Source: a virus | Lineage: Duplodnaviria > Heunggongvirae > Uroviricota > Caudoviricetes | DNA: 64,000 nucleotides | IMG/VR virus record: IMGVR_UViG_3300001605_000025 | Coordinates: 1 to 64,000 of that record | Reading direction: 5' to 3' (one strand) | In this document: one piece after another, positions 27,201-63,496 of the stretch | Layout: each line of letters begins with the position of its first letter | Numbering within the stretch: position 1 is the first letter of the stretch | Position numbers and translations under genes: made by a program | Notes under the pieces: generated by a model | What the model saw: only the letters and a program-made list of their open reading frames with translations | The model's database searches: none | Told to the model about the DNA's origin: nothing

Positions 27201-28389
27201 TCTATCTCCGTTAGCGTTACTTGGTGGAATAATTCTTGAACTCGTTACAACAGGAGTTCAAGTATTCTGGGATACCTTACGTATTCTATTTGATAGAGGA
27301 GCAATAGATGCTGGAATATATCTGTTACAGGGTTTACTCTATTTAGTCGGTAGGATTGCTAACGTGATAGCGACAGTTCTAGTTGGTGTCATATCATCGG
27401 TTATGCAACTAGTAGTTAAAGCTATTATCAGTAACATAGGATTGATTCCGGGTGTTGGATCATTCCTATCAGCTATGGGATGGGATGCTAAAACTATCAA
27501 TGCTGAAATTGGTAAGGTAGCTACATCATTAACGGGTGGTATTGGATCGTTAGTAGATCAGTTCTTGAGACCTGCTAGTTATGGGATCAGCTCATTACCT
27601 GGAAGAGCTAGAGGCGGAAAGGTAGTTGCTGGAACACCCGTTATCGTTGGTGAAGAAGGACCTGAGGTGTTTGTACCAAGTGGATCTGGAGATATAATTC
27701 CGAATCATATGACTGGATATGCCGACGGTACAGTTGATGCTATAAGTCTTGAGGCGTCAGCAGAGAAGATCGAGAAAGGAGGATCTGATATTGTATACGG
27801 AGCCGAGGCATATAAACGTATAATGGAAGAACACCGTTCTAAGAATTTCGATATGATGAATCGGTTAATTGGTAATGTCGATCGGATATTCTGGGATGTA
27901 TCAACGGGAACGAATCAACAGATCGGAATGACGAACCCGAACGTACCTGTTACCGGTGATAAGGATTATACACGACATAGAGAACAATTCCTAAGTGCTA
28001 GAACACAGGAAGAAGTTCGTGCTATGCCAAGTGGATTCAGCGGACGATATACTGAACTTGTTCAACCTATTGCTAGTGCTGTGACTAGTATAGCAACCGG
28101 GATACATCAATCATACAGTAGTCTAGAAGAAGTTCTAAGATTACGCAAGTCGTTATCATCTATGGGACCGTTAGCGACTCCAGTGTATCCACATCTAGCA
28201 TCTGGTGGGTTTGTTATGCAGACTGGTGCTGCGGTTGTACATAAAGGAGAACGTATAATACCTGCTGAAGAAGCTTCAGTACAATCCGTTCAGGTTACTA
28301 ACTACGTTACGGCTACCGTCAATAATAAGACTGATGAGAAGTATCTGTTAGAGTTAATGGGTAGAAAGTATTACAGTGGAGCGTATTAA
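21265..28389 (+). CDS. tape measure protein (2374 aa) with embedded YpsA/SLOG(DUF1273)-like domain
   Basis: Coiled-coil N-terminal half, hydrophobic glycine-zipper segments, and the C-terminal VIVGEEGPEVFVP motif typical of tape measure proteins. Track ORF 21250 uses TTG; the ATG at 21265 follows SD GGAGGGG. Confidence 0.85.
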   Translation: MADREIIEYEIVMDDTQLVETERRVKELRGMLEDVRKGVTVNMTVPDIEKELKARVAAINSYIKGSIKIDDMFDRRFDRNAARSVGDDVGKQVAKGMTEAIRSALNKFTPDTDVNLEKHIADPLQQKTIRETLTPSKTKTSQLVASKRESLANIKQSITALQNLTAEQKSELSKRNKEIDRLYSDEERADNEFIDQLTDAEERHDQVIKDLSVQMKKPRSELKDEGFYIKGKFVKTGFGSHRDVLEPTPLVTPASKEYGKGIGAQQKIPEPGPVPSRLPSRDRFKTNEEFLLALRKAREFYITQTFKEIFGRGAIDTKALSRMTKEQLAITTNENAPRKPRLDKQIETELKLLFNDPKYTVKLNEILKQAETNELGAIQEIRSIIEYERGKVDDIMPYNRIKQWKDRLKSTEPEDTGKREYHQVVPRHQAYDPLWHKRAGRTVERTVSAEPVDQLTDKFVRQKDVKYDTISKIQRRMRGINKLADQLYTVIQDAQTLSPKFYAALNTRQPKPISKHALSPKLEAMLEVEAERQLAPQREVQRAPATLVAFTGHRPNKLGGYDETTQPVRDIKAGLVDSIRTAIASGTKHFISGMALGADMWAAEAVLELKKEFPDIKLTAAVPFKGQERQWPKPVQERYSKILSQADTVKYISDEKSKLSISQMMQKRNQWMVDQADKMIAVFSGSAGGTANTIRAAKKRGIPVENVLENLKQPEQARTETVREAKKTLGPQYVPPVVPTTIEQTEKVVKPVEKAIQKPVTEKQVGPDAFAKIADAINNQLTIQSGPGLTPEQLTKHIDWMGLGKEIGTGFEPNPINLKPIQEAMERVLNAEPPKLLTAGKPTEVPDKVTLYRGGARKKEDSDIESTSNWFTDELERARGYAAMRTMASEGENKVPAIKTISVPSSLLKTLKDVGSHSPGHEFQLPPEIAKRAETAPDLLKGPITIYGKTPTVKMQQAYDSLVDKVIQPIKTGIDTFNNRSTEIPAESGTKYFKNAPKSQRFEDSLSGLDRKEYMQESQEGLDALHNEMNNMTWEQSGEVNKVKDVQKKRQDLIDFVKNAGVKIGLDIDETIQSMNVFSIMFGEESKGFLDPEYMNKNYEQWFEKLNKLSPIYSDIQKFLGNKSVLITARPNLVGLHDKAQQIGKQFGAIATFAVENTKEKAKLIKELGLETYYDEDTLQVTKLQKELDAIGATTKVMQSDFGVAREKGELPNVKRMAEQATAKPVTSPVKTELPTAPAQKPTRNTIADTLKGMVINGGALGGAGLGFLGGMTLGPLPAVFTGWLGANIGMWVDRVIKSGQLKQSIANLFNKTPVVEIPPTVVEKTTQVATGISDAMAGMLERSTFQAQKVIRDKFASVDKNGGTLTIEEAPGAEPAYPGAAVPNVPYVNPALVTRVEGSVTGIVTAMTTASRDIATAGGKVAGQIQVLGMEDFGSLGGSIKEAAQKGVQAVQEKMPRLGSSERPYTGGIRWQKFLDGTLFTDQKAYEEAVAAKIDESIKFQVDTLREMTGLSLEAATTLRKDLAAIIKPSRMKMSTLIGRAKAYIETKGATGTTPEALKEFATGEEKIFERSHPAMKNLVPEDVTPYQRMFGQDYTIKLSFLDYDEFMAAAETVRQLPGWTSTATKEFERYGQLGTNVLHTMKVTGHIPGGKEIGGRIEQVRTATETLATGPSAITERSQLEIGDKRLNLQERMNLAAMYLDKLNWKLVRGQMALLGIAFSMMGAIKMIQKAWSTVTTSMSNLPDIFKNIGMAMAFGPANAQGFLRTMLGSSNQIVGSWKKFTGYTATLNSMLAYFAFRLLQDTRVIFAIDRLVEKIIGLLSDQAFLDKIFGLIANIIDALPGAVDWIVSMVTWLMGILETPGMKDVLKWALAMGLAAQFLMTPLALLGGAVQFLGWAVSALAAILATVQAGWTLLLGQLMGAPAALTQVVAGIAGGIVLGLAAVWLLVKMGIIDAVVKIGEEFQKNFPDIMAILRIVLSPLALLGGIILELVTTGVQVFWDTLRILFDRGAIDAGIYLLQGLLYLVGRIANVIATVLVGVISSVMQLVVKAIISNIGLIPGVGSFLSAMGWDAKTINAEIGKVATSLTGGIGSLVDQFLRPASYGISSLPGRARGGKVVAGTPVIVGEEGPEVFVPSGSGDIIPNHMTGYADGTVDAISLEASAEKIEKGGSDIVYGAEAYKRIMEEHRSKNFDMMNRLIGNVDRIFWDVSTGTNQQIGMTNPNVPVTGDKDYTRHREQFLSARTQEEVRAMPSGFSGRYTELVQPIASAVTSIATGIHQSYSSLEEVLRLRKSLSSMGPLATPVYPHLASGGFVMQTGAAVVHKGERIIPAEEASVQSVQVTNYVTATVNNKTDEKYLLELMGRKYYSGAY

Positions 28390-41649: not shown

Positions 41650-42023
41650 TGCCTACTATGGTTGCACACAACGAGAACAATGGTATTGTTACCCATTGTA
41701 AACAGGAAACTACTATTGATAGACTAGTAGCGAAACAAGATAAGTATGAAGAACTAATAGCACAACTGATCACTAATGGAAGTAAAATAGATATGTTATC
41801 AGAGAGTATAGGTGAACTGAAAGATTCATTTAGTGTGATAACAAAGTGTTTACACACAATACAAATAACACAAGCTACATTACCATCGCAAACTGAAATT
41901 TCAACAATGAAGGAGGATTTGGTCCGGCATCGGACATGGTTTCAAATCCTTGGGGCTGCTACTGGGATCTTGGCTACACTTACTATTGCGTTGATAATGT
42001 TTATAGTAAATAAGATACTCTAG
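41649..42023 (+). CDS. coiled-coil protein with C-terminal TM anchor
   Basis: The ATG overlaps the upstream stop. C-terminus ILGAATGILATLTIALIMFIV. Confidence 0.35.
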   Translation: MPTMVAHNENNGIVTHCKQETTIDRLVAKQDKYEELIAQLITNGSKIDMLSESIGELKDSFSVITKCLHTIQITQATLPSQTEISTMKEDLVRHRTWFQILGAATGILATLTIALIMFIVNKIL

Positions 42024-42508
42024 CGGTTCATTTCTTTACGGAAATTAGTGATGTGGACATCGAGCTGGAACATTGGGTTGATTGTAACAATTTTCTCTAC
42101 AACCTCCTTCGCTGACTCTCTAACCGTTATCAAATCGTATTGTGCAGCTATAATTGCTAAATTCAGTTGATACATATATCTCGATAACATTACTGTCTTT
42201 TTAGTAACCTCATATTCATTTAGTATATCGGTACGTTTTGCAATTGAATTTTCTAATCGTTGTCTCAAATACGTCAGTCGAGTCTCCAGTCGTAAGATCT
42301 CTTCACGTGTTGTATTAATCACATCATCATTTATCTTTAGCCGCATCTCAACAGCGATATCTGCAAACTCATCTGAATCAATAATATCTAACGCTTTAGT
42401 AGTAATATTAGATAGATCTAGTCCCATATTCTTAATTCGTTCAACTTTCTCTCTATCAACATATACCGATGTTGTTCCCTTTCGCACCATTAGAATCCTC
42501 CTCAACAA
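42020..42508 (-). CDS. hypothetical protein (possible RHH-like N-terminus + coiled-coil)
   Basis: 162 aa. Confidence 0.35.
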   Translation of the reverse strand: MLRRILMVRKGTTSVYVDREKVERIKNMGLDLSNITTKALDIIDSDEFADIAVEMRLKINDDVINTTREEILRLETRLTYLRQRLENSIAKRTDILNEYEVTKKTVMLSRYMYQLNLAIIAAQYDLITVRESAKEVVEKIVTINPMFQLDVHITNFRKEMNR

Positions 42509-42592: not shown

Positions 42593-43699
42593 CTACTTCA
42601 ACTTAACCAGATCACCGGCTAGTGTTTCTATCAGTCTATACTTAATCATATCAGCTAACTTCTCGTATACCTGTTTAGCATTCCAACCTACCATTGAACA
42701 TTCCTTAACGATATCACGTCTTGCACATGTTCCGCCGTGTAACGTAACGATGCGTCTAATCTGAACAAAGTCTAGGTTATTCGCTATGTCATCTCTCCAC
42801 ATCTTTTCATTTTGTAACAACGTTACTAGATCTGGATCCGTAACATCAAGATGCATAACAGGTTCGATCTCACGTTTCATCAGATGGTATCCAAGAATTA
42901 ACCGATTGAAGTAACTCGATTCAAAACTATATATATCCATCTCATGGTACAACTTCAGTATTGAGTCGTCAAATTCGATCTTGTTAATCGTATCCATCTG
43001 GTGTACTTGATCGTCGATGTTACTCCACAACACAGACATAGCTTGTGGATTCGGTCTTACATTTTGTGTCCGATGCATGATATCCATCAACGCTATATTA
43101 TCAGCATACGTAGGTAGGAATACCATAAAGATCAGTCTACGCCCTAACCCAGAACTAAGATCATAACTTCCAGGCTGAATTCCAGCCCACATCGATAGAT
43201 TCGTCTGATAGGCTATAGCTCCAGACGATAATCGTTTGAACACTCGTCCGTGATCTAACGCTGCTAACAGTTGTGTTTCCATCTGACTATTCATCTGATT
43301 CTTTAAGGCATCAGATATCGCTTTAAACTCATCAATTAACAACAGTCCATCTTTATTCAGTTCTGCAGCTCCAGGATTATTAATGCCTAAACCGTTAACC
43401 GACACGACAGTTCCAACAAAACCGGCTTCAGTCATTGACTGTTCACTAGCAATCTGGATCTCCGTCCCGTGAAAGATACCATGTGGATCAGCAGCCATAG
43501 TCTGGAGATAGTAAGTCTTCATAAACCCAGGTGGAGCTACAAATAGTAAGTGGCATCGCATATTCGGTAACTGCTTACCAGCATAGTATATCTCCCGTTT
43601 CTGGTTCATCAGATTGAACGCATGAACAGCATAGCTACAGGTAAAGTATGGAGCGTAGATCTCCCGTTTGTAAGCTTGCCGATCAGCAAGTTCACTCAT
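42593..43699 (-). CDS. AAA+ ATPase, clamp-loader(RFC/gp44)-like with degenerate P-loop
   Basis: LLFVAPPGFMKT in place of GPPGxGKT, and Walker B LLLIDEF. Confidence 0.4.
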   Translation of the reverse strand: MSELADRQAYKREIYAPYFTCSYAVHAFNLMNQKREIYYAGKQLPNMRCHLLFVAPPGFMKTYYLQTMAADPHGIFHGTEIQIASEQSMTEAGFVGTVVSVNGLGINNPGAAELNKDGLLLIDEFKAISDALKNQMNSQMETQLLAALDHGRVFKRLSSGAIAYQTNLSMWAGIQPGSYDLSSGLGRRLIFMVFLPTYADNIALMDIMHRTQNVRPNPQAMSVLWSNIDDQVHQMDTINKIEFDDSILKLYHEMDIYSFESSYFNRLILGYHLMKREIEPVMHLDVTDPDLVTLLQNEKMWRDDIANNLDFVQIRRIVTLHGGTCARRDIVKECSMVGWNAKQVYEKLADMIKYRLIETLAGDLVKLK

Positions 43700-43722: not shown

Positions 43723-44355
43723 TTAGAATCTCTCCTTTAACGTTCTTCTTATCTGAATTGATTTCGCTGGACCAATTCCACGAACTCTCTGTAAATCTTT
43801 ATCTGGAACGTTTGCGATATTTGTTAAACAATTATGAGTCATCATTAATTGTGTCAGTTGTGCTGTTGAGATTCCAAGTAAACGTGCTGCCAGTATCGTG
43901 CGATCTCTTCTAACGGGAACATTATACTTTCCCTCATCAACTTTCTTCATGAACTTAACTAACGTGATCATACCTTCCCATTCGTTCTCTACCCATAACG
44001 GTTGAATACCGTACCGGCAGGCTATCGATGCGATCTCTCCGAAGAGAATATCTGGATCGATTGTTATCCCGATATCTCGCATATTCTTAACGTAAGGTGC
44101 TATAGCGCCTGTGATAAGCAGAATCTGGACTTTATCTTGGTGGACAGATATTCGTTCAATCTGATCGTGTATTCTACGATTAGGGCCTGTGATACTTCCA
44201 TACAAGTCTGCAATTGTCTTACGTTCAGCCAAACACCGTTCCGATTGGTAATCTCCTTCGTCTAGTTTAATCCTCCTGAACTTCATTTCCGGGAACTTCT
44301 TAGTTAAAAAGTCATAGTACTTTGGTGGCTCTCTTGTATCTACGTCGACTGGCAT
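43723..44355 (-). CDS. ERCC4/XPF-Mus81-Hef-type nuclease with C-terminal HhH2
   Basis: DTRE...GDYQSERCLAERKTIADL ERCC4 motif and GIGPAKSIQI HhH. Confidence 0.6.
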   Translation of the reverse strand: MPVDVDTREPPKYYDFLTKKFPEMKFRRIKLDEGDYQSERCLAERKTIADLYGSITGPNRRIHDQIERISVHQDKVQILLITGAIAPYVKNMRDIGITIDPDILFGEIASIACRYGIQPLWVENEWEGMITLVKFMKKVDEGKYNVPVRRDRTILAARLLGISTAQLTQLMMTHNCLTNIANVPDKDLQRVRGIGPAKSIQIRRTLKERF

Positions 44356-44595: not shown

Positions 44596-44811
44596 TTATC
44601 CCTCTCGGAAAACTTTTCGTTCTATCATCATTCGAATAGCTTCTAGTGCTGGAGATATCTCTACCCAGTCTCCAGAAAAATAGCTGGTTGGTAAGTTTGC
44701 TTTATCGCAATATGAATCAAACAGTTCAGACTTCTGCATCCATTCATGTTCTGTGTCCAGAAGCTCTAAAAATTGGACTAACGTTAGATTAGTTTCTTTC
44801 CCTTCCGACAT
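44596..44811 (-). CDS. hypothetical protein
   Basis: 71 aa. Confidence 0.35.
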   Translation of the reverse strand: MSEGKETNLTLVQFLELLDTEHEWMQKSELFDSYCDKANLPTSYFSGDWVEISPALEAIRMMIERKVFREG

Positions 44812-45563
44812 ACCGACACCACGTCATGCTGATGAATTGATTCCTGATGTGTACAGACGACTACCCAATCTTCCATCCATCCATCGATCGTTGCACCGAT
44901 CACTCTTGAAGCATCCTCGACAAACAGATTCGTTCGGGCGGCTCGCTGACACCAATCTAGTTCGTCCGGTCTCTTCATCAACGGTATAGGAACAATGTCT
45001 ACCACTTCGATGATCCGTGCTACAATTGATGTCATTAGATCGTCCAGGTCCTCCTTCGGCGATAACAATCCAGTTACCTGTGCTAAAGCTCGCTGCATAT
45101 GAGGAACCCCTCCTTCTTGTTTCACCATTCTCATGGCACATGGGCACACACTCGCATACGGAACTTTCATAGTCAGATACCAATCTTCTTTATCGGGTAC
45201 ACGGACACCTTCTAACATACTATCTATAAAGATCAATTGTTCGTTCTCCATCTCATATGCTGCTGTCCAATTACATTCCCAGTAACTGTTAGTCGTTTCA
45301 TGTCCTTCAGCTAACGTTTCTAATAATTCTGAGTTCATATAAATCGGATCGTCCTCGTAATCTGTTAACGCATCAACTAATCGTGACATATGAACACCAG
45401 TCCGATCGATCAGATCAACATAAGCAGACTGACTTGTTAACGTTCGTCGTCCGCTAAAGTCTTGCATAAACTGTTTGAATCCTTTAATACCAACTTTCTC
45501 TAGTGGCATACCACCAGACGGACCTTCAGCATAGTCAGGTAACAATCGTACACATGAATCCAT
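44784..45563 (-). CDS. folE2: GTP cyclohydrolase FolE2/MptA-like
   Basis: N-terminal LPDYAEGPSGGMPLEKVGIKGFK resembles the FolE2 LPDVQ...VGIKxL block. The start was trimmed to the ATG with SD AAGGAG. Confidence 0.5.
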   Translation of the reverse strand: MDSCVRLLPDYAEGPSGGMPLEKVGIKGFKQFMQDFSGRRTLTSQSAYVDLIDRTGVHMSRLVDALTDYEDDPIYMNSELLETLAEGHETTNSYWECNWTAAYEMENEQLIFIDSMLEGVRVPDKEDWYLTMKVPYASVCPCAMRMVKQEGGVPHMQRALAQVTGLLSPKEDLDDLMTSIVARIIEVVDIVPIPLMKRPDELDWCQRAARTNLFVEDASRVIGATIDGWMEDWVVVCTHQESIHQHDVVSVCRKGKKLI

Positions 45564-45564
45564 A

Positions 45565-45738
45565 CTACTGCTCCTTTGGGTTCTTCCAGTTACCAAATAC
45601 AGTCTCAAGAACAGCTGCTGAATATGGATGTGTATTACATGAATTATGAAGTAGCTGTTGGTCACAGCTTATAGCTCGTAACGCCTCTCCAATTGCATCT
45701 ACTTTCTGTTCAAGTCTTTTAAAGTCTTTAGTAGTCAT
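45565..45738 (-). CDS. small hypothetical protein (57 aa)
   Basis: The ATG overlaps the QueE stop (TAATG). Approximate. Confidence 0.3.
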   Translation of the reverse strand: MTTKDFKRLEQKVDAIGEALRAISCDQQLLHNSCNTHPYSAAVLETVFGNWKNPKEQ

Positions 45739-46385
45739 TATCTCACCTTATACAGTACATGAAGTCTCGGGCTTACGGCTCCGTTAACTCCATATTCATC
45801 CATCATACGAATAATCTCACGAACCATTCTATTATGTTCCGTTATCATCGTATCGTCCTGGGGAGTCATCGGCATAAAGTACATTCTCACTTCAGAGTGT
45901 TCAGTTGCCCATTTCATCCACCATCTAATATTCTCATACCTAATAACTGGTTTAATAACTACATCTACTTCACAAATGTTAGTCCACAACGTTAATAGAT
46001 CGGTCAGTCCAGAAGTAGGTAGTTCACTATCTTTCGGACTAACAACTACCAGATCGAACGCAGCAACACCAAACGGTATCGTTCCATTCGTTTCGATAGC
46101 ATGTGTCATACCTAACGATTCAACTGAAGCGATCGTATCCTTTATCTCATCAACCTGGAGTCCAGGTTCTCCACCAGTCCAGACAACGTTCCTCACTCCT
46201 TTCTTATATGCTTTAGTAATCAGGCTTTTTAGTTCAGTCCGACTAACATTAATATACAGTGTTGCGTATTTCGTATCACAAAAAGGACAATGAAGATTAC
46301 AGCCCGATAGTCTTATAAACAACGACCGTACTCCAGCTTGTGGACCTTCACCCTGAATCGATATAAACGTTTCGTTTAGTCTCAT
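45738..46385 (-). CDS. queE: 7-carboxy-7-deazaguanine synthase (radical SAM)
   Basis: FISIQGEGPQAGVRSLFIRLSGCNLHCPFCDTKY. Confidence 0.8.
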   Translation of the reverse strand: MRLNETFISIQGEGPQAGVRSLFIRLSGCNLHCPFCDTKYATLYINVSRTELKSLITKAYKKGVRNVVWTGGEPGLQVDEIKDTIASVESLGMTHAIETNGTIPFGVAAFDLVVVSPKDSELPTSGLTDLLTLWTNICEVDVVIKPVIRYENIRWWMKWATEHSEVRMYFMPMTPQDDTMITEHNRMVREIIRMMDEYGVNGAVSPRLHVLYKVR

Positions 46386-46816
46386 TGTAACCCTCTCTCA
46401 GGAGTCCACGTGACGGTAGCCTTACTAACATCATTCTCCCATACCGTCACACTAACCATTGTTAGTGGTCCAAGTTTCCAGTTGTACACATCCATCACAC
46501 TATTACAAAGTAACGTTGCAATATTTTCGCATGTTGGATTCTCTCTCGTTGGATATACTAGTTGATTACACGATCTAAGTATCTGAACTAACGGATCAGA
46601 TTCTTTCAGTATCACTTTATGATCCATACCATCCGTTAGTCTTTTAAGTACCGTAAAGTTCTCGAGGTACCCAACAGAGTTAACTTTGTCACCCTGTAAG
46701 ACAAAATCTACTTTCCAATTATGCCCATGTAAGAATCCACATTTCGAATCATCACCATACTGTCTATGTGCAGCTTCAAAATCGACAGACGTCTGTATCG
46801 TAACCATGATGTTCAC
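46382..46816 (-). CDS. queD: 6-carboxy-5,6,7,8-tetrahydropterin synthase
   Basis: CGFLHGHNWKV motif, 144 aa, ATGA overlap with queE. Confidence 0.75.
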   Translation of the reverse strand: MNIMVTIQTSVDFEAAHRQYGDDSKCGFLHGHNWKVDFVLQGDKVNSVGYLENFTVLKRLTDGMDHKVILKESDPLVQILRSCNQLVYPTRENPTCENIATLLCNSVMDVYNWKLGPLTMVSVTVWENDVSKATVTWTPERGLQ

Positions 46817-49030: not shown

Positions 49031-50950
49031 TTATGAACATCCAGACCACCCGCATGTCATACACGTTCCGCTTCTACAACCCGAACCGAAACTAAGTACC
49101 GTCCCACATTGTGGACACTTATTCGTTACAATTTCAGATTCTGTAAACCAGAATGCATTCATTCGTTTCGCAAGAATATCCGGACAACTCTTTCCAGCAG
49201 AGTTTGGATTCTTCATTGCGGTAGTACACTCAACTTTCGATAGCGTCGATATGATCCGTTTAATCGTTGTCTTCTCATCACCATAGAGTCTCGGGTCATG
49301 TATATACTTGGAAATAACCTTCCCCATTCCTTCCATGTTAGCCTTACATCCGCCTTGCGTGAGAACATAAGCTTCGTATGGGTGATCGTCGGCGATGTTG
49401 TTATTGGTAGTAACGTGTATCTCGCCACACCCTGTGGGGAAGTCCAACGTTCTACCGTATCGTTCAACTCTGTCTCCTTTAGAGCTCGGTTGGCCTCTTC
49501 CTGGAATCGGTCCAGTAGGTCGAACAGATGTAAGTACCTGTTTATCTTTTGAACCATCTCGATACACCGTTATCCCTTTGCATTTCAGTTTCCAAGCTAA
49601 ATGTATCGCATCCTCAATATCCTGTACTGTAGCACTTGATGATAGATTAATCGTTTTTGATACAGCGTTATCAACATGGTTCTGCCAGGCAGCCATATGT
49701 TTCAACTGCCACTCTACAGATATATGCTTAGCTGTATCTTCTAGTAATCCATGTTGTCTTGCGAGATCGGTCAGTGGATGTTCGAGTGTTACAATTCCAG
49801 CTTCTGACTCTCGTGTGTACGTCCAGTCAAATACTGGTTCGATACCTGACGAACAATCTGCAAGGAAGGATAATGTTCCAGTTGGAGCAATCGTCATAAC
49901 TGTTTCGTTGTTATAGGTCCGTCCTGGAACTTCTCTCGTTGCAACATCATAGTACCTAGATCCAATCTTATCGATCAACTGAATCGCTTCTGTTGATTGA
50001 TAGCTGATACCCATTTTAATCAGTAAGTCAGCCCAACCCATAACACCGGATCCAATCTTTCTAGACAGTAATGTAGCCTCTCGTATCTCTGGTATCGGGA
50101 ACGTATTCAAATCAATAACATCGTTTAACGCTCGTACCGACAATCTTACCGTATCGTCAAGCATCCCGTAATCAAACGTCTCTCCTTCCGGTATCAGTTT
50201 ACTTAGATTGATAGACGCTAAATTGCACGACTCATACGGTCGTAACGGCTGTTCGCCACAAGGGTTCGTACAATCGATAACACCTCTCTCAGGAAACCGA
50301 TTCGTCTCGTTGAGTCTATCCAAAAATACGACACCGGGGTCTCCCGTTCTCCAGGCATGCTCTGCAATAGTGTGAACCAGTCCGTTATCGCTTTGCATAT
50401 CTGAGTCCTTGATCCCGACGCTAATATTGAAATGTGATAGTCCGGATCCACTATCTTTACAGTGTATAAACTCTTGGATGTCTGGATGATCAGCGTTAAG
50501 TATCCCCATATTGGCACCCTCGCGTTTACCTCCTTGGGATACCACACCGGCTGACTCGTTAAGCAATTCCATGACTTTAACAGGACCACATGCTTTCCCT
50601 TTAGTTGATTGTATAAGTGAGCCACGTGGTCTAAGTCTAGAGAAGTTGAAACCGGTTCCACCAAAGTACTTATGCACACGGGCGGCGTGCCAAACCGTTC
50701 TATATATTCCATCCAGTGAATCTTCCACTGGTAAGACGTAACACGCTGATAATCCTCCAGCTCCCGGTACGCCTGCATTAACAAGCGTCGGAGTGTTTGG
50801 CAACCAGATTCCGTGAGACATAGCATTGAGCAATGTTTCCGTGTACTTGCGATCCTCTCGTCCGATAAACTTTGCAACTCTCTCATATACATCACGTTCT
50901 GTTCTCTCTCCAGGTTGTAAATAACGATCCTTTAGTAGTTTCTCTTTCAT
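49031..50950 (-). CDS. ribonucleotide reductase catalytic subunit (probably class II, B12-dependent) with C-terminal Cys-rich tail
   Basis: NPCGEQPL...CNLASINL active-site block. 639 aa single chain, C-terminus CPQCG...CMTCGWSGC. Confidence 0.75.
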   Translation of the reverse strand: MKEKLLKDRYLQPGERTERDVYERVAKFIGREDRKYTETLLNAMSHGIWLPNTPTLVNAGVPGAGGLSACYVLPVEDSLDGIYRTVWHAARVHKYFGGTGFNFSRLRPRGSLIQSTKGKACGPVKVMELLNESAGVVSQGGKREGANMGILNADHPDIQEFIHCKDSGSGLSHFNISVGIKDSDMQSDNGLVHTIAEHAWRTGDPGVVFLDRLNETNRFPERGVIDCTNPCGEQPLRPYESCNLASINLSKLIPEGETFDYGMLDDTVRLSVRALNDVIDLNTFPIPEIREATLLSRKIGSGVMGWADLLIKMGISYQSTEAIQLIDKIGSRYYDVATREVPGRTYNNETVMTIAPTGTLSFLADCSSGIEPVFDWTYTRESEAGIVTLEHPLTDLARQHGLLEDTAKHISVEWQLKHMAAWQNHVDNAVSKTINLSSSATVQDIEDAIHLAWKLKCKGITVYRDGSKDKQVLTSVRPTGPIPGRGQPSSKGDRVERYGRTLDFPTGCGEIHVTTNNNIADDHPYEAYVLTQGGCKANMEGMGKVISKYIHDPRLYGDEKTTIKRIISTLSKVECTTAMKNPNSAGKSCPDILAKRMNAFWFTESEIVTNKCPQCGTVLSFGSGCRSGTCMTCGWSGCS

Positions 50951-51603
50951 AGTCTCATCACGTTACCGATGTAATCTTCGTCACGCTTTAAGTACAGATG
51001 TGGACAGAAACAAATATGTGTATACGTTCCAACCGGTAGTCCTACAGCTAACGATATATGTTTCTGTAACTCCGTTAGTCCATACATATTTGGACCTAGT
51101 CCCAGTGTCATATCCTCCGACCGGAATACAACTTTCATATTTAAACGTCCTTCTCTTACATCACAATGTATCAACTGTAAGCACGGAACGTCTTCACGAG
51201 TCGTATCCAATTTCGGATTCCATGTTATCGCTTGAGCTCGTCTAGTAGATGGTGACCCAATAAGTTTCTGTTCAATATACGTTATCTGGTTGATCCCAAA
51301 GTGATGCGTTAATCGATCGTGGTAATCGTAGACAAAGTCAGCAGACGTTCCCGCAATCAGATCGTTAGCATACTGATCCATATACTTCTGACTGAACGGT
51401 AGTGTGGGAGGTTTAATAAATCGTGGTTCCACAAACGGAGTTCTAATAAACAATGCTAGTTCTTTAGCCTCAATAGTATCCTGTTTGTTCTCTCCAGGAT
51501 ATACAATCGGGCATTCAGTCTCATCTTTATAACAATGGTTCATGATATACCGTATAACGATCTCATGACCTTTCGCTAAGTTAGGTGCTTGTAACAACTT
51601 CAT
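50947..51603 (-). CDS. thymidylate-synthase-family enzyme (ThyA / dCMP- or dUMP-hydroxymethylase-like)
   Basis: PCLQLIHCDV...RSEDMTLGLGPNMYGLTELQKHISLAVGLPVGTYTHICFCPHLY matches the ThyA fold blocks. Short at 218 aa. Confidence 0.55.
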   Translation of the reverse strand: MKLLQAPNLAKGHEIVIRYIMNHCYKDETECPIVYPGENKQDTIEAKELALFIRTPFVEPRFIKPPTLPFSQKYMDQYANDLIAGTSADFVYDYHDRLTHHFGINQITYIEQKLIGSPSTRRAQAITWNPKLDTTREDVPCLQLIHCDVREGRLNMKVVFRSEDMTLGLGPNMYGLTELQKHISLAVGLPVGTYTHICFCPHLYLKRDEDYIGNVMRL

Positions 51604-52136: not shown

Positions 52137-52442
52137 TCACTTCTCCGGCCATGGTCGTCTATTAGCATGAAACATATACCCAACTCGTTGTAACGATCCA
52201 TCTAGTAGTCTAATACAAACTATCTCCGCATGATATCCAGCAGCTTCTAATGGAGCTACTTCATTACATATGATATCATTACATTCAGTAGTTAACCTAT
52301 TTGCTTGATCACCAAACTCAGTAACTGTTATCAATCCTGCTTTTAGGTCAAACCATAGATCATCTTTCCGTTTAGCTAATATCTGTAATCGATCGTGAGC
52401 ATCTTTTAATTCTTGAAGCTTCTGATCAGTCATAAATATCAC
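52137..52442 (-). CDS. hypothetical protein
   Basis: 101 aa. Confidence 0.4.
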   Translation of the reverse strand: MIFMTDQKLQELKDAHDRLQILAKRKDDLWFDLKAGLITVTEFGDQANRLTTECNDIICNEVAPLEAAGYHAEIVCIRLLDGSLQRVGYMFHANRRPWPEK

Positions 52443-53184
52443 TAAACTTCTTTAGTCCATCATCTGGAAACAACCTCGGTAACTCCTCTAACGTACACAT
52501 ACGACAGGCTGCAAACTTTCCGTCCGAACAACGATACGGGAAGTCATTCTTATCTATTGCAGCACGTAGTTTAGCAATCCGTGTCAAAGCTAACCGTCTC
52601 ATATCATCTGTTAACTGTTCAGTATATATGGCTTGCAATCTTGGATTAATCAATCGAAGTTCGGTTATAGTTCCTGGGTTACCTGATAACTCCCAAAGTA
52701 CCGCATAGAAAGCTAATTGTCGTATAGCAGATTCCGTATTCATCTTACTACCGGTCTTATACTCTATCAGTCGTACAGTATTATATAGTTTGTCAACCCA
52801 CTCTGCACCATCTAACGTTGACTTTATCTGTATACGATCACATTGCATAAACAGTTCACGATACAGTGGACAGAACTCGTTCTCACGTTCCTCATTCCTT
52901 AGTTTGTCAAGTCGTTTCCGTTGATACGATAGGAACCATTCATACATTGATAGTTCTTCTTCATTCAACCAGTCTGCGGGTATTAGTTCCGACCAATCAT
53001 CAGGATCAATAGTTAGTGCATAGTCGAAGAATCGTTCAGCAAACTCATGAAACCTAGTCCCGATCAGCATCTTCTGGTTAACGGGTTTATTAACCAGTTC
53101 GACGTATTGGTGGTAAAATTGTCTCGGACAGAAGTCATAACTTTCTAGCATCGACTTTCGTATATGTTTATCGTTCATATACAT
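52426..53184 (-). CDS. Cas4/RecB-family PD-(D/E)xK nuclease with Fe-S-type Cys cluster
   Basis: N-terminal CPRQFYHQY, IEYKTG (ExK) and C-terminal CSDGKFAACRMC. Confidence 0.6.
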   Translation of the reverse strand: MYMNDKHIRKSMLESYDFCPRQFYHQYVELVNKPVNQKMLIGTRFHEFAERFFDYALTIDPDDWSELIPADWLNEEELSMYEWFLSYQRKRLDKLRNEERENEFCPLYRELFMQCDRIQIKSTLDGAEWVDKLYNTVRLIEYKTGSKMNTESAIRQLAFYAVLWELSGNPGTITELRLINPRLQAIYTEQLTDDMRRLALTRIAKLRAAIDKNDFPYRCSDGKFAACRMCTLEELPRLFPDDGLKKFSDIYD

Positions 53185-53260: not shown

Positions 53261-53962
53261 TCATATGTCTAACCTGTTTGATATAATCCATCCACAACCT
53301 ATTCCAGCAGCATTACCACTAATCGTTAGCGGCATATCTTGACCGATACCAATTATACACTCCTGTAGTCTACCGATTATCGGCTGTATCTGTTTCAAAT
53401 AATCAGTAGCTACAAGTACTGTAACTTTAGGTGCTTCCTCCTTTCGTATCGTAATCTCATCACGTTTATACGTAACGTCAACAAGTTCAGCTAACTTATC
53501 TTCAAAAACGATACCATCTGGTCCATACGTTATTTTCATAGCAGCACTACTGTCTTTCTTATCATAAGCGTCAGTAATTGTTTGTATCCCAAACTTCAGA
53601 TCGTTAGGTGTCATTGTAAAAACATTAGTCCATGGAATCTTCGGACTCGGTCCAGGTTTTACACCAGTCAATCTTTTCAGTTTATAGTTTGCACGTCCTG
53701 AATGAACAACTACCGGATTATCCAGTTCAATTGTAACGTCCCCAACCATCGTAGATGGAAAGTCATCAAACCTAAGTGCTAGATTAGTTGCATCAGTAGA
53801 CGTACAAGCAACTTTACATTCTACGAATCCTACCAACGCAATATCAGTCGCAGACATGAATAGATGATCCAGTTGAACGTTGATGTTACTTTCAGGAACA
53901 AACGATCTCATAATCGCTAACGCTAATGTTAATCGTTCTCCAGTTATCGTAATACTAGTCAT
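53261..53962 (-). CDS. DNA polymerase sliding clamp (PCNA/gp45-like)
   Basis: 233 aa, of clamp size, located in the replication module. The assignment is tentative. Confidence 0.45.
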   Translation of the reverse strand: MTSITITGERLTLALAIMRSFVPESNINVQLDHLFMSATDIALVGFVECKVACTSTDATNLALRFDDFPSTMVGDVTIELDNPVVVHSGRANYKLKRLTGVKPGPSPKIPWTNVFTMTPNDLKFGIQTITDAYDKKDSSAAMKITYGPDGIVFEDKLAELVDVTYKRDEITIRKEEAPKVTVLVATDYLKQIQPIIGRLQECIIGIGQDMPLTISGNAAGIGCGWIISNRLDI

Positions 53963-55835: not shown

Positions 55836-56340
55836 TGAACACCTGTGTCTGTACTCTTTCTAGTGGAATTGTACCAATATCTTTAACACCATATTCAACC
55901 GACGTAGCTGTAAGTGCCTGTCGGTTACCATACGAAAAATATACATAGTATAGTCCGATAGAGGATCCTTTAGGAAGTGTCACACTGAATGATCCATCAC
56001 CGGTTGTACTAGTATTGGCGACATCTTTAGAACTTTCATTTTTCACGGTAACTACTATAGCTGCTTGTGGAAGACCATCTACTGTGGCCTTACCTTGAAT
56101 TTTAATATAGTCAGGAGTCGGAGTTGGTGTAGGTGTTGGTACAATAACCAATACTAGGAGTATAGCCACGAGTATCATGACTGTCCATACTATCTGTTTC
56201 AGATCCATTTGATCACATCCAATTAGAACCATTTTGTTAGTCCGGTTTGTCCATTGATTTCTGTATCCCAATTCAATCCGATAGATTCCATTAAAGACTC
56301 CATCTTCATCTGAACTGTCTTCAGTCCCATTTTTTGCCAA
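55822..56340 (-). CDS. membrane protein with PTPTPTP linker
   Basis: One TM helix followed by a Thr-Pro linker. Confidence 0.4.
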   Translation of the reverse strand: MAKNGTEDSSDEDGVFNGIYRIELGYRNQWTNRTNKMVLIGCDQMDLKQIVWTVMILVAILLVLVIVPTPTPTPTPDYIKIQGKATVDGLPQAAIVVTVKNESSKDVANTSTTGDGSFSVTLPKGSSIGLYYVYFSYGNRQALTATSVEYGVKDIGTIPLERVQTQVFNESS

Positions 56341-58508
56341 TCAACCGTAACACGAGATAATAGATCAGCGTCAGGATAATCAGTATCGATACATATAACG
56401 TCAACGGGACTAATGCAATATAATAACTTAGGCTTCTTGTCTGCCCTGAACTTAATTCCAAGAAGTTTCCGTCCATTCTCTTTACCTCGAATCCAAGGGC
56501 TTGAACCTCTCTCTTCGTGTGAACGATTCTTTGTAATACCCTTAGGTATCGCTACAAGTTGACAACCAACTCTACCGTTCAATATATTATAGTAAGTTTC
56601 TCTTATTAAACGTACTGCTGTTTCGGGATCATTGTTAACGAGAACGTTCTCGAAGAATTGTTTCATCAACGTTCTCGATATCTCGGCAGTATCCGATCGT
56701 TTGACTTCAAGCCCAGTATAGTTAACCTTTGGTGGTAGTTTTGTAAGGTCTTGTCCATCCTTCCAAATAAGAACACCGGCATAACGTTTCTTCGCAGCGA
56801 CGTCCTTGTCCGACCGTTTCTTAAACATAAGTGTGCGGTATATCTTCTCCAGTTTAAGCGTAGGAGCAAGATGGTCGGCGATATTGACGGATCGTGCCCA
56901 ATCCAAGAGATAAGTATTGAGTTCCGTCTGGATGCGCAAACCTTCTTCTGGTGTCTTAACTGGCTTGATAAACGTACTGTCCGTATCCCCATAGACGATA
57001 GTATAACCCAACTCTCTGATGCGTTTATGTAGTTCTCTGGAGATCTCGCGACCCTTTCCAGTAATAAACGCTGCGATTTCGGGTTTATGGAGTCTGGCTC
57101 CAGAAAAAGCCAAATATCCGTAGAACGCGTTGATGACATATTTCAAACTCTGTTCACTAGTTAACATAGCCTTTGAGGCTTTACCTTCCATTTTCAATCG
57201 TCTCATCACATCTCTAGCTTCCATCAATTCAACGATGATCTTAGGTATCATCTTAAGTCTGTCCGGACTCAGATTAAACGCTAAGATAATTGATGGGTAT
57301 AGAGCTTTCAAATCAGTAGTACCAACGTTCTCGTGAACACCAAACTCCGGTTGTAAGACTAACGCTCCTTCATAATCAACCGATACCACATCATGTCGCT
57401 TAGTCGGTAGAGGCATAACCTCACCAGCTAATACGACCTTATGCATGATATAGTATTCGATAATCTTTGCACGTTGATAGCAATCGGTAATCTTGATACC
57501 GACCATCCTACGGAGAGACTCGTAGAACTCTATAAGTCCAGTTTCAGCATCGATCTTCTGTAACGCAATAACATCATTCTTTCCGTACTGTATAAGTTCC
57601 TTCCAACGCTTCTCTTGGATCAAGGTACGGATATGATCTCCGTGGTCTTCGTACGTGAACTGTGCCTCGTGCCGTGCCACAAACTTTAAGTCGTAAGTTG
57701 GTAAACCACCCTTTGGCTTGCTCCAGTCCTTGTAGAATTTCAGCATATCGAAGAGTTCCCGTCCTTGCCATCTCTCCTCGTCTGGGTACGTCGTAGGCCA
57801 CCTCGATAACTTCGAAACATTGACCTTGAGCATCCTTGCTCTTCTTATGATATACGGAATATCGAACTTTTCGCTGTACCAACCGCACATCAGATCCGGA
57901 TCTGTTCTCCAAACGAACTCTACAAATGCTGTGAGTAATTCCTGTTCCGTATCGAACGACTCTTGGTCTGGGTCGATCAACTCTCCGTTCAGTGTAAACA
58001 CTTTGCACTCTGATGTGTAAGAATCTAGGACCTGTATCTGACAGATTGGCCATTTGCATTCCTCCGGTAGTGGCATTTCATCAACTGGACTATCAACTTC
58101 AATATCGAAAAAGCAGCATCTCGGTTTCAACATCGGAACGTCTATTGGGTGTCCCAGTTCATCGAACCCATACATGATTCCGTGATCGATTAGGTAACGC
58201 ATATCGTAAACGATATCCGCTTCGCACGTAAACGGAAAGAGATCACGTACCTTCGGAACGTCACTCGGTAATCTTGTGAAACATCGTGTAACGTTTCGCC
58301 CAAAAGCATCAATGTAACCAGGTTCCGTTCTAGTGATAAAAGGAGTTGACGGAATGTACGACCCTCCTCCGTAAAAGTAAGGTTCTTGATTTCCAAACCC
58401 CATAACTTTGACTTCTTCCGGTTTATCATAATTCCGACCTATCAATACCGTTATTGGTTTCCCGTTATGCATTGTCCAGAACGATTGTTCCCAAACGTAC
58501 CGACTCAT
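56223..58508 (-). CDS. family B DNA polymerase
   Basis: Exo I FDIEVD, motif A DLKALYPSI and motif C YGDTDS. Confidence 0.9.
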   Translation of the reverse strand: MSRYVWEQSFWTMHNGKPITVLIGRNYDKPEEVKVMGFGNQEPYFYGGGSYIPSTPFITRTEPGYIDAFGRNVTRCFTRLPSDVPKVRDLFPFTCEADIVYDMRYLIDHGIMYGFDELGHPIDVPMLKPRCCFFDIEVDSPVDEMPLPEECKWPICQIQVLDSYTSECKVFTLNGELIDPDQESFDTEQELLTAFVEFVWRTDPDLMCGWYSEKFDIPYIIRRARMLKVNVSKLSRWPTTYPDEERWQGRELFDMLKFYKDWSKPKGGLPTYDLKFVARHEAQFTYEDHGDHIRTLIQEKRWKELIQYGKNDVIALQKIDAETGLIEFYESLRRMVGIKITDCYQRAKIIEYYIMHKVVLAGEVMPLPTKRHDVVSVDYEGALVLQPEFGVHENVGTTDLKALYPSIILAFNLSPDRLKMIPKIIVELMEARDVMRRLKMEGKASKAMLTSEQSLKYVINAFYGYLAFSGARLHKPEIAAFITGKGREISRELHKRIRELGYTIVYGDTDSTFIKPVKTPEEGLRIQTELNTYLLDWARSVNIADHLAPTLKLEKIYRTLMFKKRSDKDVAAKKRYAGVLIWKDGQDLTKLPPKVNYTGLEVKRSDTAEISRTLMKQFFENVLVNNDPETAVRLIRETYYNILNGRVGCQLVAIPKGITKNRSHEERGSSPWIRGKENGRKLLGIKFRADKKPKLLYCISPVDVICIDTDYPDADLLSRVTVDWQKMGLKTVQMKMESLMESIGLNWDTEINGQTGLTKWF

Positions 58509-61189: not shown

Positions 61190-61969
61190 TCAGTTCACCT
61201 TAATCTTAGATGTGTCACGGAGATGCTTAACGATCGAATCCCATGTTGGATTCGTCAGTGGTGTGTGAGTCCCGCCAAACCGATCACCCTTAAAGATCAC
61301 TTGTCTAGTCAGTCCGTCATACTTCATTTCCAGTATAACATCAAACCAGTAGTCAGTTTTCTTCTGCCACTTAGCCTTATCGTATCCAAGATCAGCACCA
61401 CGGTCACCAACAGCAGCCTCTGCACGGAAACACCCGATAACATTCCACTGGGAGTGAAGCATCATCATGATAAACTCGTTATACCGTTTATTGGCGTGTC
61501 CCCAAGCTAACCGTCCAGGATCTGTAAAGTTCGATTCGTCCTTCCATGTTCCTAACCAATCCCATATATCAGATCCACTATCGATCACGATAGTTCCGAT
61601 TGGACCCTTATAGTCAGCGATAAAGTCAGTCAGAACATCCATCGCCTCATATGCAGCGTCTAAGCTCTTTACAACGTCAACTTTATGGAGCTTCTTATCA
61701 GCTTCATAAAGTACCTGGGCAACGTGAATCTGTTCCTGAACATCTTTTGGAAACTGTAAACGATTCAGTGACCAAGATCCTTCAGTATCTATCCCATAGA
61801 TAGGTTTAGGAGCTGTCATCGCTAGATGTGTCTTCCCGACTTTCGCACGTCCCCAACACGCTATCTTGAGACCCGAAACGTGTTCTAGTTCCACAGAAGG
61901 CTTAAAGATCTCCTTAATATTCCGTGGAACACGTTCTGGTTCGTCCTTAATCTTCTTTCCGAGTGCCAT
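61190..61969 (-). CDS. RecA-fold ATPase (Sak4/AAA_24-like)
   Basis: Walker A GRAKVGKT near the N-terminus, 259 aa. Confidence 0.45.
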   Translation of the reverse strand: MALGKKIKDEPERVPRNIKEIFKPSVELEHVSGLKIACWGRAKVGKTHLAMTAPKPIYGIDTEGSWSLNRLQFPKDVQEQIHVAQVLYEADKKLHKVDVVKSLDAAYEAMDVLTDFIADYKGPIGTIVIDSGSDIWDWLGTWKDESNFTDPGRLAWGHANKRYNEFIMMMLHSQWNVIGCFRAEAAVGDRGADLGYDKAKWQKKTDYWFDVILEMKYDGLTRQVIFKGDRFGGTHTPLTNPTWDSIVKHLRDTSKIKVN

Positions 61970-61972
61970 ATG

Positions 61973-63496
61973 TTACCCCGTTAAAAAAGTATAGTGTTCA
62001 ATATCCTTTAACATTGTTCCACGATCAGCTTCAAACATTGGAACAAACTTGAATACTGCATCGCTGTATCCACTAATCGGACATGTTAACGGATCCGACT
62101 CTGGAATCTTAAGTAGTCCGTAAGACGATACATCGAAACTATACAGTCTACAGTTCGGATTGACTTTCATCCTGTACTGTTTAAGCACATCCTGAACGTC
62201 ACTACCGTACCCGTAGCTATTATAGCACTGCATATCGGAGAACAAGAAGATCCGATCGTAGAACTGGTTCTTCGATAATATATCAGTTATTGCTAACCAA
62301 GCATTAGTAGAATGACCAACGTCAGTAGTAGCAACTTTCTGCATATTAGTAAGAATGCTGTCACGTTTAGATAACGGTACAGTCTTGTAAGTTTGTCCGA
62401 ACGCACCAACTGTTGCCTCCTCACATACATGTAACGAGATTGCACTGAACAGTGATGCGATATCAATGCACTGAACAGTACTCTTATCGGAAACGTCTGA
62501 ATGCATCGATCCACTGTTATCAGACGCAATAAATGTCTTGCCTGATATCCGTGGAACATTCTCAACGGATATAGTCATTGCATCGTTTATCGCATCCAGA
62601 ACTTTTGTAGGTCCACCTACCTCACGGTAAGCACTGAAGAACCTATAGGGGAACTGTTTACTTTTCCGTACAGCAACAGGATCCGTTAACCGCTTCAGAT
62701 AAAGATTCATATCAACATCATGCTTCTGGAAGTTTCTTAAGTTCCTCAGTAGCGCCATGTAGCCCATCTTTGGAATTACTTCCTCCCATGTCCTCTTAGA
62801 AGCACCGTTCTTCGAAATGTGAGTCTCCCAAGTAAACGGAGTCTCCAATGTTCCGTTGATAATCTTATCATACAGTACCTGTTGTTCTGCAGATTTCGGT
62901 TTCGGATGTGTCAGGAAGATAACATCTTTCAGTGTTACCTTTCCTTCACGATTATACTTCGCCAGCTGGTATTCATCAAACTGGTTTAACGCATCACTAA
63001 TACCCTTCTTTAGCATTCCAGGTATCGGAGCGAATGTCTTCGGTACATACTTCTTACCTTGAGCTTCAAGTGAGGCTTTCCGTTTCGCTTCTACTTCTGG
63101 GTTAATAGGTGACGACGCTAAAAAGTATGCTATCGCTTCTGCGGGTTCGTCAGCTCTCCGAAGAATACTTGAAACATATTTATACGCACCTTCCAGTTTA
63201 GTTCCAGCCTTAGCATACTCAACTAATAGAAACACAGGAACAGTTCTCAAGTACATTTCGTTCCGTGCATATGCCGCCAACTTCGGTACGTACTCAGGAT
63301 CGTTTACACTGATCCGTTTAACAAGATTCAGTATAGCATCGCTAGTCTGTTTCTCCTTCGTATAGTATGAGTCTCCAGACATCATAAACGACATCGTGTG
63401 GAGCATCAATGCTAACTTGTCAGAAGGCTTATACGCTTCCGCCCCCTCATAGTTAACGGGTTTCGTTCCGTTTGGTTTTGCATTAAATCTCGCCAT
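61973..63496 (-). CDS. rsr: Ro60 orthologue (TROVE domain + vWA/MIDAS)
   Basis: MALLRNLRNF, FPYRFF, IASDNSGSM (MIDAS DxSxS) and FLFSD blocks align with human Ro60. SD GGAGAAG before the ATG. Confidence 0.7.
   Translation of the reverse strand: MARFNAKPNGTKPVNYEGAEAYKPSDKLALMLHTMSFMMSGDSYYTKEKQTSDAILNLVKRISVNDPEYVPKLAAYARNEMYLRTVPVFLLVEYAKAGTKLEGAYKYVSSILRRADEPAEAIAYFLASSPINPEVEAKRKASLEAQGKKYVPKTFAPIPGMLKKGISDALNQFDEYQLAKYNREGKVTLKDVIFLTHPKPKSAEQQVLYDKIINGTLETPFTWETHISKNGASKRTWEEVIPKMGYMALLRNLRNFQKHDVDMNLYLKRLTDPVAVRKSKQFPYRFFSAYREVGGPTKVLDAINDAMTISVENVPRISGKTFIASDNSGSMHSDVSDKSTVQCIDIASLFSAISLHVCEEATVGAFGQTYKTVPLSKRDSILTNMQKVATTDVGHSTNAWLAITDILSKNQFYDRIFLFSDMQCYNSYGYGSDVQDVLKQYRMKVNPNCRLYSFDVSSYGLLKIPESDPLTCPISGYSDAVFKFVPMFEADRGTMLKDIEHYTFLTG

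Follow-up and report, generated by a model that had tools for sequence, protein, structure and literature searches.

A short XPF/Hef-type nuclease in an uncultured tailed virus with archaeal-type replication partners

The stretch of DNA described here, called the window below, comprises positions 1 to 64,000 of IMG/VR virus record IMGVR_UViG_3300001605_000025 (Caudoviricetes). The open reading frame (ORF) at 43723-44355 on its minus strand was confirmed to encode an XPF/Hef-type nuclease, in which an ERCC4 domain is followed by a C-terminal tandem helix-hairpin-helix domain, (HhH)2. The best explanation, and a probable one, is that this is an active short XPF endonuclease, carried by a complete tailed virus that has an archaeal-style replisome and most probably infects a methanogen or another anaerobic archaeon. 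The identity and fold of the nuclease, its intact active site, its conservation, its gene context and its archaeal-type partners form the observed part of this case.

The window covers 64 kb of a 74.87-kb genome, and the virus comes from anoxic metagenomes. Coordinates of the nuclease and of the genes discussed with it are collected in Table 1.

Identity, fold and active site

The gene starts with an ATG and shares 16 nucleotides with an upstream ORF of 84 amino acids (aa); its product is 210 aa long. In the family alignment the N-terminus, MPVDVDTREP, is in register with the N-termini of relatives, which means that the start codon is correct. Two plus-strand ORFs inside the gene (43758-43913 and 44002-44265) were considered and set aside, as they are unsupported and oppose the coding strand of the whole block from 42 to 64 kb.

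An earlier, preliminary description of this DNA had noted an ERCC4 signature (GDY...ERK..DL) with an HhH2 tail, and had likened the protein to the short archaeal XPF. Both points hold. The Pfam ERCC4 model (PF02732), proposed at the time as a check, covers residues 5-126 with 39.6 bits, where the gathering score is 24 (E 5.9e-10). In PHROG the match is to the ‘ERCC4-type nuclease’ family. The best match in NCBIfam is the Hef model, on which residues 3-209 align to positions 573-778 of 781 (E 2.6e-15).

Searching solved structures with the single sequence returned noise only, and a profile of the family was needed to obtain matches. Built from 28 relatives, this profile aligns end to end with the XPF of Aeropyrum pernix (ApeXPF, 2bhn/2bgw; positions 4-211 to 4-208, E 1.2e-14). 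It separately matches the nuclease domain (1j22) and the HhH2 domain (1x2i) of Pyrococcus Hef, and also the HhH2 domain of ERCC1.

The fold agrees with this. The AlphaFold model has a pLDDT of 92.5, with alternating strands and helices in the nuclease domain and five helices at the C-terminus. Foldseek against the PDB ranks ApeXPF first, aligned over the full length, and the Hef nuclease domain second; the latter (1j22) superposes on the model with a TM of 0.83 and an rmsd of 2.6 Å. FANCM-FAAP24, Mus81-Eme1 and XPF-ERCC1 come next.

The C-terminal domain is the less obvious half. On its own, the sequence scores 13.6 bits against Pfam HhH2 (PF12826), below the cutoff of 27. The (HhH)2 tail is nevertheless established, because it is reached by the Hef model and by the family profile, because many relatives carry precomputed HHH_2 or HHH_5 matches, and because the modelled helices come with a hairpin, G193-I194-G195, that is invariant in all 28 sequences. 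That is the second hairpin of the domain; the first is degenerate.

The nuclease signature reads V5-D6-x-R8-E9, followed by G34-D35-Y36, E44-R45-K46 and D50-L51. Within the 28-sequence alignment, which reaches down to about 37% identity, D6, R8, E9, G34, D35, E44, R45, K46 and D50 are invariant. We take these to be the metal-binding and catalytic residues of XPF-family nucleases. Going by its residues, the protein is apparently an active, catalytically intact enzyme.

There are more than 100 relatives in the databases, all from metagenomes or metagenome bins, many of them on contigs of 60-155 kb. Relatives that keep the C-terminal hairpin are 206-254 aa long. A scan of IMG/VR with the single protein found no loci; with the nuclease alignment as query, it found 17.

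All this does not make the protein an orthologue of cellular Xpf or Hef, which is a point against the explanation given above. Both NCBIfam equivalog cutoffs are missed widely, with 22.7 bits against the 300 required for Arch_Xpf (NF040956), and 55.6 against 610 for Hef. Judged by sequence, the nuclease is a separate, virus-borne branch relative to the cellular archaeal Xpf.

Replisome partners, gene order and host

The preliminary description had pointed to a clamp of PCNA size. It is indeed a PCNA of archaeal type. A profile of 18 relatives, gathered in an exhaustive HMMER scan, matches the PCNA of Archaeoglobus fulgidus (1rwz) over the full length with an E of 3.1e-33. Haloferax PCNA follows at 4e-25, then come Pyrococcus, Thermococcus and Sulfolobus, and then eukaryotic PCNA. 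For the bacterial beta clamp the value is no better than 2.4e-7.

The family B DNA polymerase (PolB) ends in QTGLTKWF-COOH (nucleotides 56226-56249, minus strand), and these eight residues are a canonical PCNA-interacting protein (PIP) box. A relative of this polymerase, in locus L010, has QTSFDQFI near its C-terminus. The best cultured relatives of PolB are found in haloarchaeal tailed viruses, at 25-28% identity over 96-98% of the length.

Directly downstream of the nuclease gene lies an ATPase of 368 aa, here called mini-MCM. Its Pfam MCM match is weak (20.5 bits), and its profile matches MCM9 and Sulfolobus MCM. The structural model (pLDDT 90.4, pTM 0.91) has only MCM2-7 or archaeal MCM chains among its top 50 PDB folds. 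It consists of an AAA+ core and a C-terminal winged helix, without the MCM N-terminal domain; cellular MCM measures about 650-700 aa. Several relatives of 505-593 aa (P0171, P0175, P0191, P0209, P0210 and P0215) contain Hint/intein domains. Such inteins mark mini-MCM out as an essential replication factor in this virus group.

What is new is a small cassette. In every related locus that reaches past the nuclease gene, mini-MCM is found directly downstream of XPF. This holds for loci from IMG/VR (L005, L007-L013), from metagenome contigs (L003/L004, L022/L023) and from a genome collection (L028, L029); one further locus, L006, ends inside the nuclease gene. Even in L029, where mini-MCM is only 28% identical, a 218-aa ORF with ERCC4 and HhH2 lies directly upstream. 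In most loci (L003-L005, L007-L010, L022/L023) a 162-aa ORF follows. This small ORF has weak, sub-threshold Pfam hints (CcdA and coiled-coil) and no match in PHROG or PADLOC. Wherever a related locus was fully sampled, the XPF/mini-MCM/small-ORF cassette is strictly conserved. Also new, in a modest way, are a recurrent aromatic tail at the C-terminus of the nuclease family, and the placement of this uncultured virus group among the archaeal viruses.

FolE2, QueE and QueD lie in a row at 44784-46816 (minus strand). They accompany the nuclease only in the closer relatives (L003-L007); the sampled flanks of L008-L013, L022 and L028 have none of them. As this synteny is lost in distant relatives, XPF can be said to travel with mini-MCM and not with the deazaguanine genes. 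For FolE2, the mechanical ORF (44784-45665, minus strand) has a GTG start and 293 aa, where gene callers on an identical contig give 259 aa; the Pfam match begins at residue 49, which makes an internal true start probable. By Pfam, neither QueC nor a DpdA/TGT-type transglycosylase is detectable anywhere in the 74.87-kb genome. Unless completed by the host or by a divergent viral protein, the pathway seems to end at 7-carboxy-7-deazaguanine. Candidates for such a viral protein include unassigned ORFs of 278, 264, 261 and 331 aa.

An archaeal host is very likely. The preliminary description had argued for an archaeal host or archaeal-type machinery, and this is supported by the archaeal-type PCNA, the PIP box of PolB and the MCM fold. 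The thymidylate synthase (ThyA; 50947-51603, minus strand) adds to this, scoring 162.9 bits with the methanogen-type model TIGR03283, just under its cutoff of 174.55, while bacterial ThyA models reach about 40 bits. A scan of a genome collection (185,579 species genomes) with the mini-MCM profile found two loci, both in archaeal bins. One is a contig of a Methanospirillum sp. metagenome-assembled genome (MAG), which also carries ribonucleotide reductase (RNR), Dcd and XPF; the other is a Thermoprotei MAG contig with XPF and mini-MCM. Given the Methanospirillum bin and the methanogen-type ThyA, Methanomicrobia are a reasonable guess for the host group. A distant cellular relative of the nuclease, P0125, sits on a contig of 0.7-1 Mb that has archaeal ribosomal protein genes. 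It adjoins a ResIII/DEAD helicase, and together the two look like a split Hef.

Several observations weigh against an archaeal host. The NCBI bin labels of the relatives are mostly bacterial (Clostridia, Proteobacteria, Dehalococcoidales, Bacteroidetes and Babeliales; also Thorarchaeota). The nearest cultured relatives of the large terminase, TerL, are bacterial phages, at about 21% identity. The gene once described as FolE2/MptA is a GTP cyclohydrolase, which scores better as FolE2 (IB type, a bacterial-type model) than as MptA. TATA-like motifs had been cited in favour of archaea, but archaeal TATA motifs are not enriched, with 7 found and 10.3 expected. The window has no tRNA gene, save a truncated tRNA-like match at its edge, and the tRNA check suggested earlier gives no host call.

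These points can be read to mean that the host is bacterial, that the archaeal-like genes were acquired horizontally, and that the nuclease is a rare ERCC4 enzyme of a bacterial phage. Bacterial phages often carry Sak4, Ro60/TROVE and FolE2-type genes. Shine-Dalgarno use is also strong, as had been noted before, with such motifs upstream of 51 of the 74 genes (GGTG in 17) and 8-15 in internal controls. All the same, this reading is distinctly improbable. The labels name five unrelated bacterial phyla, as well as Thorarchaeota, for what is the same viral module. Among the contigs with a bacterial label, the one that was inspected (155 kb, Dehalococcoidales) does have this module. For these reasons the labels are treated as mis-binned viral DNA and were rejected as host evidence. 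Both matches in the quality-filtered genome collection are archaeal. Shine-Dalgarno sites are normal in methanogens and other Euryarchaeota; their use fits bacteria and methanogens alike, and is therefore uninformative on the host, so that the earlier observation stands and the argument drawn from it does not. A YpsA-like domain, the other argument once offered for bacteria, has no Pfam match in any ORF scanned. Sigma-70 sites (44, with 48.5 expected) and intrinsic terminators (8, with 7.4 expected) are at chance level, and uninformative as well. PCNA, PIP box, MCM fold, methanogen-type ThyA and the archaeal-virus kin of PolB and the ERCC4 nuclease meanwhile agree on archaea.

Known homologues and the rest of the genome

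Nucleases of this kind are not new in archaeal viruses, and here the preliminary description overstated the novelty. Short XPF genes are already annotated in the cultured methanogen viruses Drs3 and PhiF1, and genes with an ERCC4 nuclease domain in haloarchaeal tailed viruses. Nucleases of ERCC4 type have also been reported in almost all magroviruses (PMC10160649), in viruses of Asgard archaea (10.64898/2026.08.12.739948) and in haloarchaeal or nanohaloarchaeal tailed viruses (10.1101/2025.02.15.638363).

The related statement, that such a protein is essentially unknown in bacterial phages, broadly stands. The nuclease and its relatives were compared with 50,697 phage records using tblastn. 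This found ERCC4 nucleases in Halorubrum viruses HRTV-25/27 and in the Methanobacterium viruses Drs3 and PhiF1. The only other match to the ERCC4 region is one unannotated ‘Bacteriophage sp.’ from human faeces. The remaining matches cover the HhH2 half only, and are uvrC in two Acinetobacter phage records and a second faecal record. In BFVD, 11 fold matches have an E of 0.001 or less. The named ones belong to archaeal tailed viruses and eukaryotic giant viruses; no bacterial phage is among them, with five of the 11 unnamed.

The homologues in Drs3 (ORF13, 218 aa) and PhiF1 (ORF54, 216 aa) are full length, have both nuclease and HhH2 domains, and sit in viral replication/recombination modules. 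With hhalign, the family profile matches Drs3 ORF13 over its full length (probability 99.2%, E 3.8e-19, 202 columns), and BLASTP aligns the nuclease with PhiF1 ORF54 at 21% identity across both domains. The thymidylate synthase of PhiF1 is of the methanogen type too, with 32% identity to that described here, and a PD-(D/E)XK nuclease and a ribonucleotide reductase lie nearby. Even so, both homologues are distant (21-26% identity), the rest of their genomes is not detectably related, and a mini-MCM neighbour was looked for in both and is absent. The haloviral proteins match the nuclease domain only, over about 112-128 residues in HRTV-25/27; the HSTV-2 protein has 161 aa.

Among cellular enzymes, the short XPF of Crenarchaeota (ApeXPF, 2bgw/2bhn; SsoXPF) has the same two-domain layout in about 210-250 aa, and the same catalytic motif. 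ApeXPF is both the best fold match and the end-to-end profile match, at only some 19-20% identity. PCNA is an essential cofactor of SsoXPF (PMC2836553), and the viral nuclease is likewise encoded together with a PCNA. Unlike crenarchaeal XPF, it has a degenerate first HhH hairpin and a partial PIP-like tail, is virus-encoded, and adjoins a mini-MCM. In euryarchaeal Hef (Pyrococcus furiosus; 1j22-1j25, 1x2i), it is the nuclease and HhH2 end that matches. The viral protein lacks the N-terminal SF2 helicase of Hef (about 550 residues), and the motor next to it is a separate AAA+ protein with an MCM fold.

Mus81-Eme1, XPF-ERCC1 and the giant-virus protein EP364R (African swine fever virus) share the ERCC4 fold and the ERK motif, and Mus81 and XPF also have HhH2. 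The eukaryotic enzymes differ in being heterodimers with an inactive partner and extra domains. The ORFs scanned include no second ERCC4-fold gene and no candidate inactive paralogue, in keeping with a homodimer.

The identical nuclease protein is found on contigs of 74,870 bp from two independently assembled runs (SRR943323 and SRR943327), and also on a JGI contig from sample 3300002220. The two assemblies are of equal size with permuted starts. This points to a complete, circularly assembled genome, which is circularly permuted or terminally redundant. There is no detectable DNA similarity to cultured phages, and no close protein relative of the nuclease among them.

The nuclease gene lies in a long minus-strand block, from about 42 to 64 kb, which is co-directional and has negative GC skew throughout. 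This block also contains Ro60/TROVE, a Sak4-type annealing protein, PolB, a dCTP deaminase, a Cas4-like PD-(D/E)XK nuclease, thymidylate synthase, a class II ribonucleotide reductase, RNase H, QueD, QueE and FolE2, and then XPF, the 368-aa ATPase and the 162-aa ORF. The plus-strand block from 12.5 to 42 kb is devoted to tailed-virus morphogenesis, with the large terminase, capsid, tail tube, and PKD and beta-helix fibre proteins. It also holds a probable portal of 499 aa that has no family match. A 2379-aa ORF after the tail tube gene (21250-28389, plus strand) is presumed to encode the tape measure, and its unusual length would imply a very long tail.

Table 1 Nuclease gene, its domains and associated replication and recombination genes in the window.
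Feature	Position	Strand	Evidence
Short XPF/Hef-type nuclease gene, ERCC4 + (HhH)2, 210 aa	43723..44355	-	ORF, Pfam, Hef model, ApeXPF match, fold
ERCC4 nuclease domain, residues 1-140	43936..44355	-	D6, R8, E9, D35, E44, R45, K46, D50 invariant; 1j22 fold match
(HhH)2 DNA-binding/dimerisation domain, residues 152-210	43726..43902	-	1x2i and ERCC1 HhH2 profile match, five modelled helices
Mini-MCM, 368-aa AAA+ ATPase, MCM fold	42593..43699	-	Pfam, profile, model, synteny
162-aa protein, third gene of the triad, last gene of the minus-strand block	42020..42508	-	Conserved after mini-MCM
Cas4-like PD-(D/E)XK exonuclease, recombination partner in operon	52426..53184	-	Pfam PDDEXK_1 70.2 bits, PADLOC Cas4 models
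Sliding clamp, PCNA of archaeal type, 233 aa; candidate nuclease platform	53261..53962	-	18-relative profile
Family B DNA polymerase	56223..58508	-	Pfam DNA_pol_B
Sak4-type (AAA_24) single-strand annealing/recombinase protein	61190..61969	-	Pfam AAA_24, PHROG Sak4-like

Some other features of the genome are worth recording. A block of small ORFs at the left, on the minus strand, includes an SPFH/Band-7 protein (901-1800, minus strand) and a 397-aa AAA+ ATPase (5003-6196, minus strand). The latter is closest to archaeal proteasome-activating nucleotidase/CDC48, with weak matches to IetA/IteA anti-phage ATPases.

The Ro60/TROVE gene (61973-63496, minus strand) is preceded by about 1.1 kb without ORFs, which occupies 63497-64000 of the window and continues past its edge (L030 8900-10000). 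This region holds three tRNA-like elements. One matches Rfam tRNA with 30.9 bits (L030 9482-9544, partly window 63953-64000), another is mascRNA-like (19.3 bits, around 63624-63683), and the third tRNA-Sec-like (29.4 bits, around 63539-63620). ARAGORN calls none of the three a tRNA. The arrangement resembles Y RNAs of the YrlA type, which have tRNA-like domains, beside a Ro60 gene, here in a probable archaeal virus.

Proposed role and alternatives

The dimer state, substrate preference, PCNA dependence and biological role of the viral nuclease are proposed here by analogy. Crenarchaeal XPF is a homodimer of nuclease and HhH2 domains, in which most of the affinity for DNA comes from the HhH2 domains, which also bend the duplex. 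Enzymes of the Mus81-Eme1 and XPF-ERCC1 class act on 3' flaps, forks and nicked junctions. The viral nuclease would similarly work as a homodimer, with its two HhH2 domains binding and bending the duplex arms of branched DNA. Close to the branch point, one nuclease domain would then cut the strand bearing a 3' flap, fork arm or nicked four-way junction.

Such substrates would arise from replication by PolB, PCNA and mini-MCM, and from recombination by the Sak4 and Cas4-like proteins, with the Sak4-type protein a likely source. The nuclease may trim off 3' flaps and take the branches out of stalled forks and recombination intermediates, which would allow concatemers to be completed and packaged. 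Among the ORFs scanned, neither a resolvase of the Hjc, RuvC or endonuclease VII type nor any other junction resolvase could be recognised, so the nuclease may be the debranching enzyme that acts before packaging.

The short C-terminal tail of the nuclease may let the viral PCNA hold the enzyme on DNA. PCNA is an essential cofactor of Sulfolobus XPF, which binds it with its last six residues (PMC2836553). Of the features of a PIP box, the viral tail, RRTLKERF-COOH, has the leucine and the aromatic residue at the end. Of 100 family members, 58 have an aromatic within the last three residues, mostly as ...GW-COOH. On the other side of the ledger, RRTLKERF is not a canonical PIP box, as it has no Q and one aromatic only, and the terminal aromatic is absent in the other 42 relatives. 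By analogy with Sulfolobus, tethering through the tail is plausible but unproven, and maybe not universal in the family.

It is conceivable, if on the unlikely side, that XPF and mini-MCM make up a helicase-nuclease machine of their own, analogous to Hef/FANCM but encoded by two genes, which would refine the explanation above. The AAA+ motor would serve to remodel or unwind fork or origin structures for cutting by the nuclease, in fork restart or in break-induced or recombination-dependent initiation of viral replication. The adjacency and order of the two genes, kept to the lowest mini-MCM identity seen and usually with the same small ORF next, agree with this. So do the inteins in some mini-MCM relatives, which are typical of essential replication proteins, and the split-Hef look of P0125 beside its helicase in an archaeal chromosome. 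Mini-MCM, lacking the N-terminal DNA-binding domain of cellular MCM, may also need a partner that binds DNA. However, adjacency in a long co-directional replication operon is weak evidence of physical interaction, and the nucleases of Drs3 and PhiF1 do without a mini-MCM neighbour. It is quite unlikely that the whole cassette, small ORF included, is a virus-specific machine of this sort, an AAA+-based Hef/FANCM analogue that has spread in uncultured archaeal tailed viruses. If it were, a truncated MCM motor would be targeted to DNA by an HhH2 nuclease, by the small protein, or by both, and the complex would process forks or make the priming 3' end for recombination-dependent replication.

Two further ideas have very little going for them. 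The nuclease could be functionally tied to FolE2, QueE and QueD, for example by degrading unmodified host DNA while modified viral DNA is protected. FolE2 is directly upstream, with two small ORFs in between here, and is adjacent in L003/L004. This is a very improbable link, and it was rejected: distant loci keep XPF and mini-MCM without the three genes in their sampled flanks, and no DpdA/TGT or QueC was found that could put the base into DNA. Moreover, XPF-family enzymes recognise DNA structure, not base identity. It is scarcely credible that the nuclease serves in defence or counter-defence, or that the protein is a scaffold without catalytic activity, like ERCC1. Pairs of a nuclease and an AAA+ ATPase are common in defence systems, and inactive ERCC4-fold proteins (ERCC1, FAAP24, EME1) do occur among the fold matches. 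PADLOC, at an E of 0.01 or less, returned no defence-model match for the nuclease, mini-MCM or the 162-aa ORF, on which ground the defence reading was rejected; the gene also lies within a viral replication operon and is conserved along with replisome genes. A dead scaffold is very unlikely because the catalytic residues are all invariant in the 28 relatives.

An active XPF endonuclease of an archaeal tailed virus thus remains the best account. What is known of the XPF family itself is unchanged by it. The finding does add a compact XPF of 210 aa, with a high-confidence model and an intact active site, to the small set of such enzymes encoded by viruses. A viral XPF that comes with its own PCNA is a possible system for clamp-dependent flap cleavage, and the pairing of XPF with mini-MCM gives a lead on how forks and branched intermediates are handled in these viruses. 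Taken with PCNA, the PIP-box PolB and mini-MCM, the nuclease helps to assign this 75-kb virus, which is otherwise unclassifiable, and a sizeable group of relatives from anoxic habitats to archaeal hosts.

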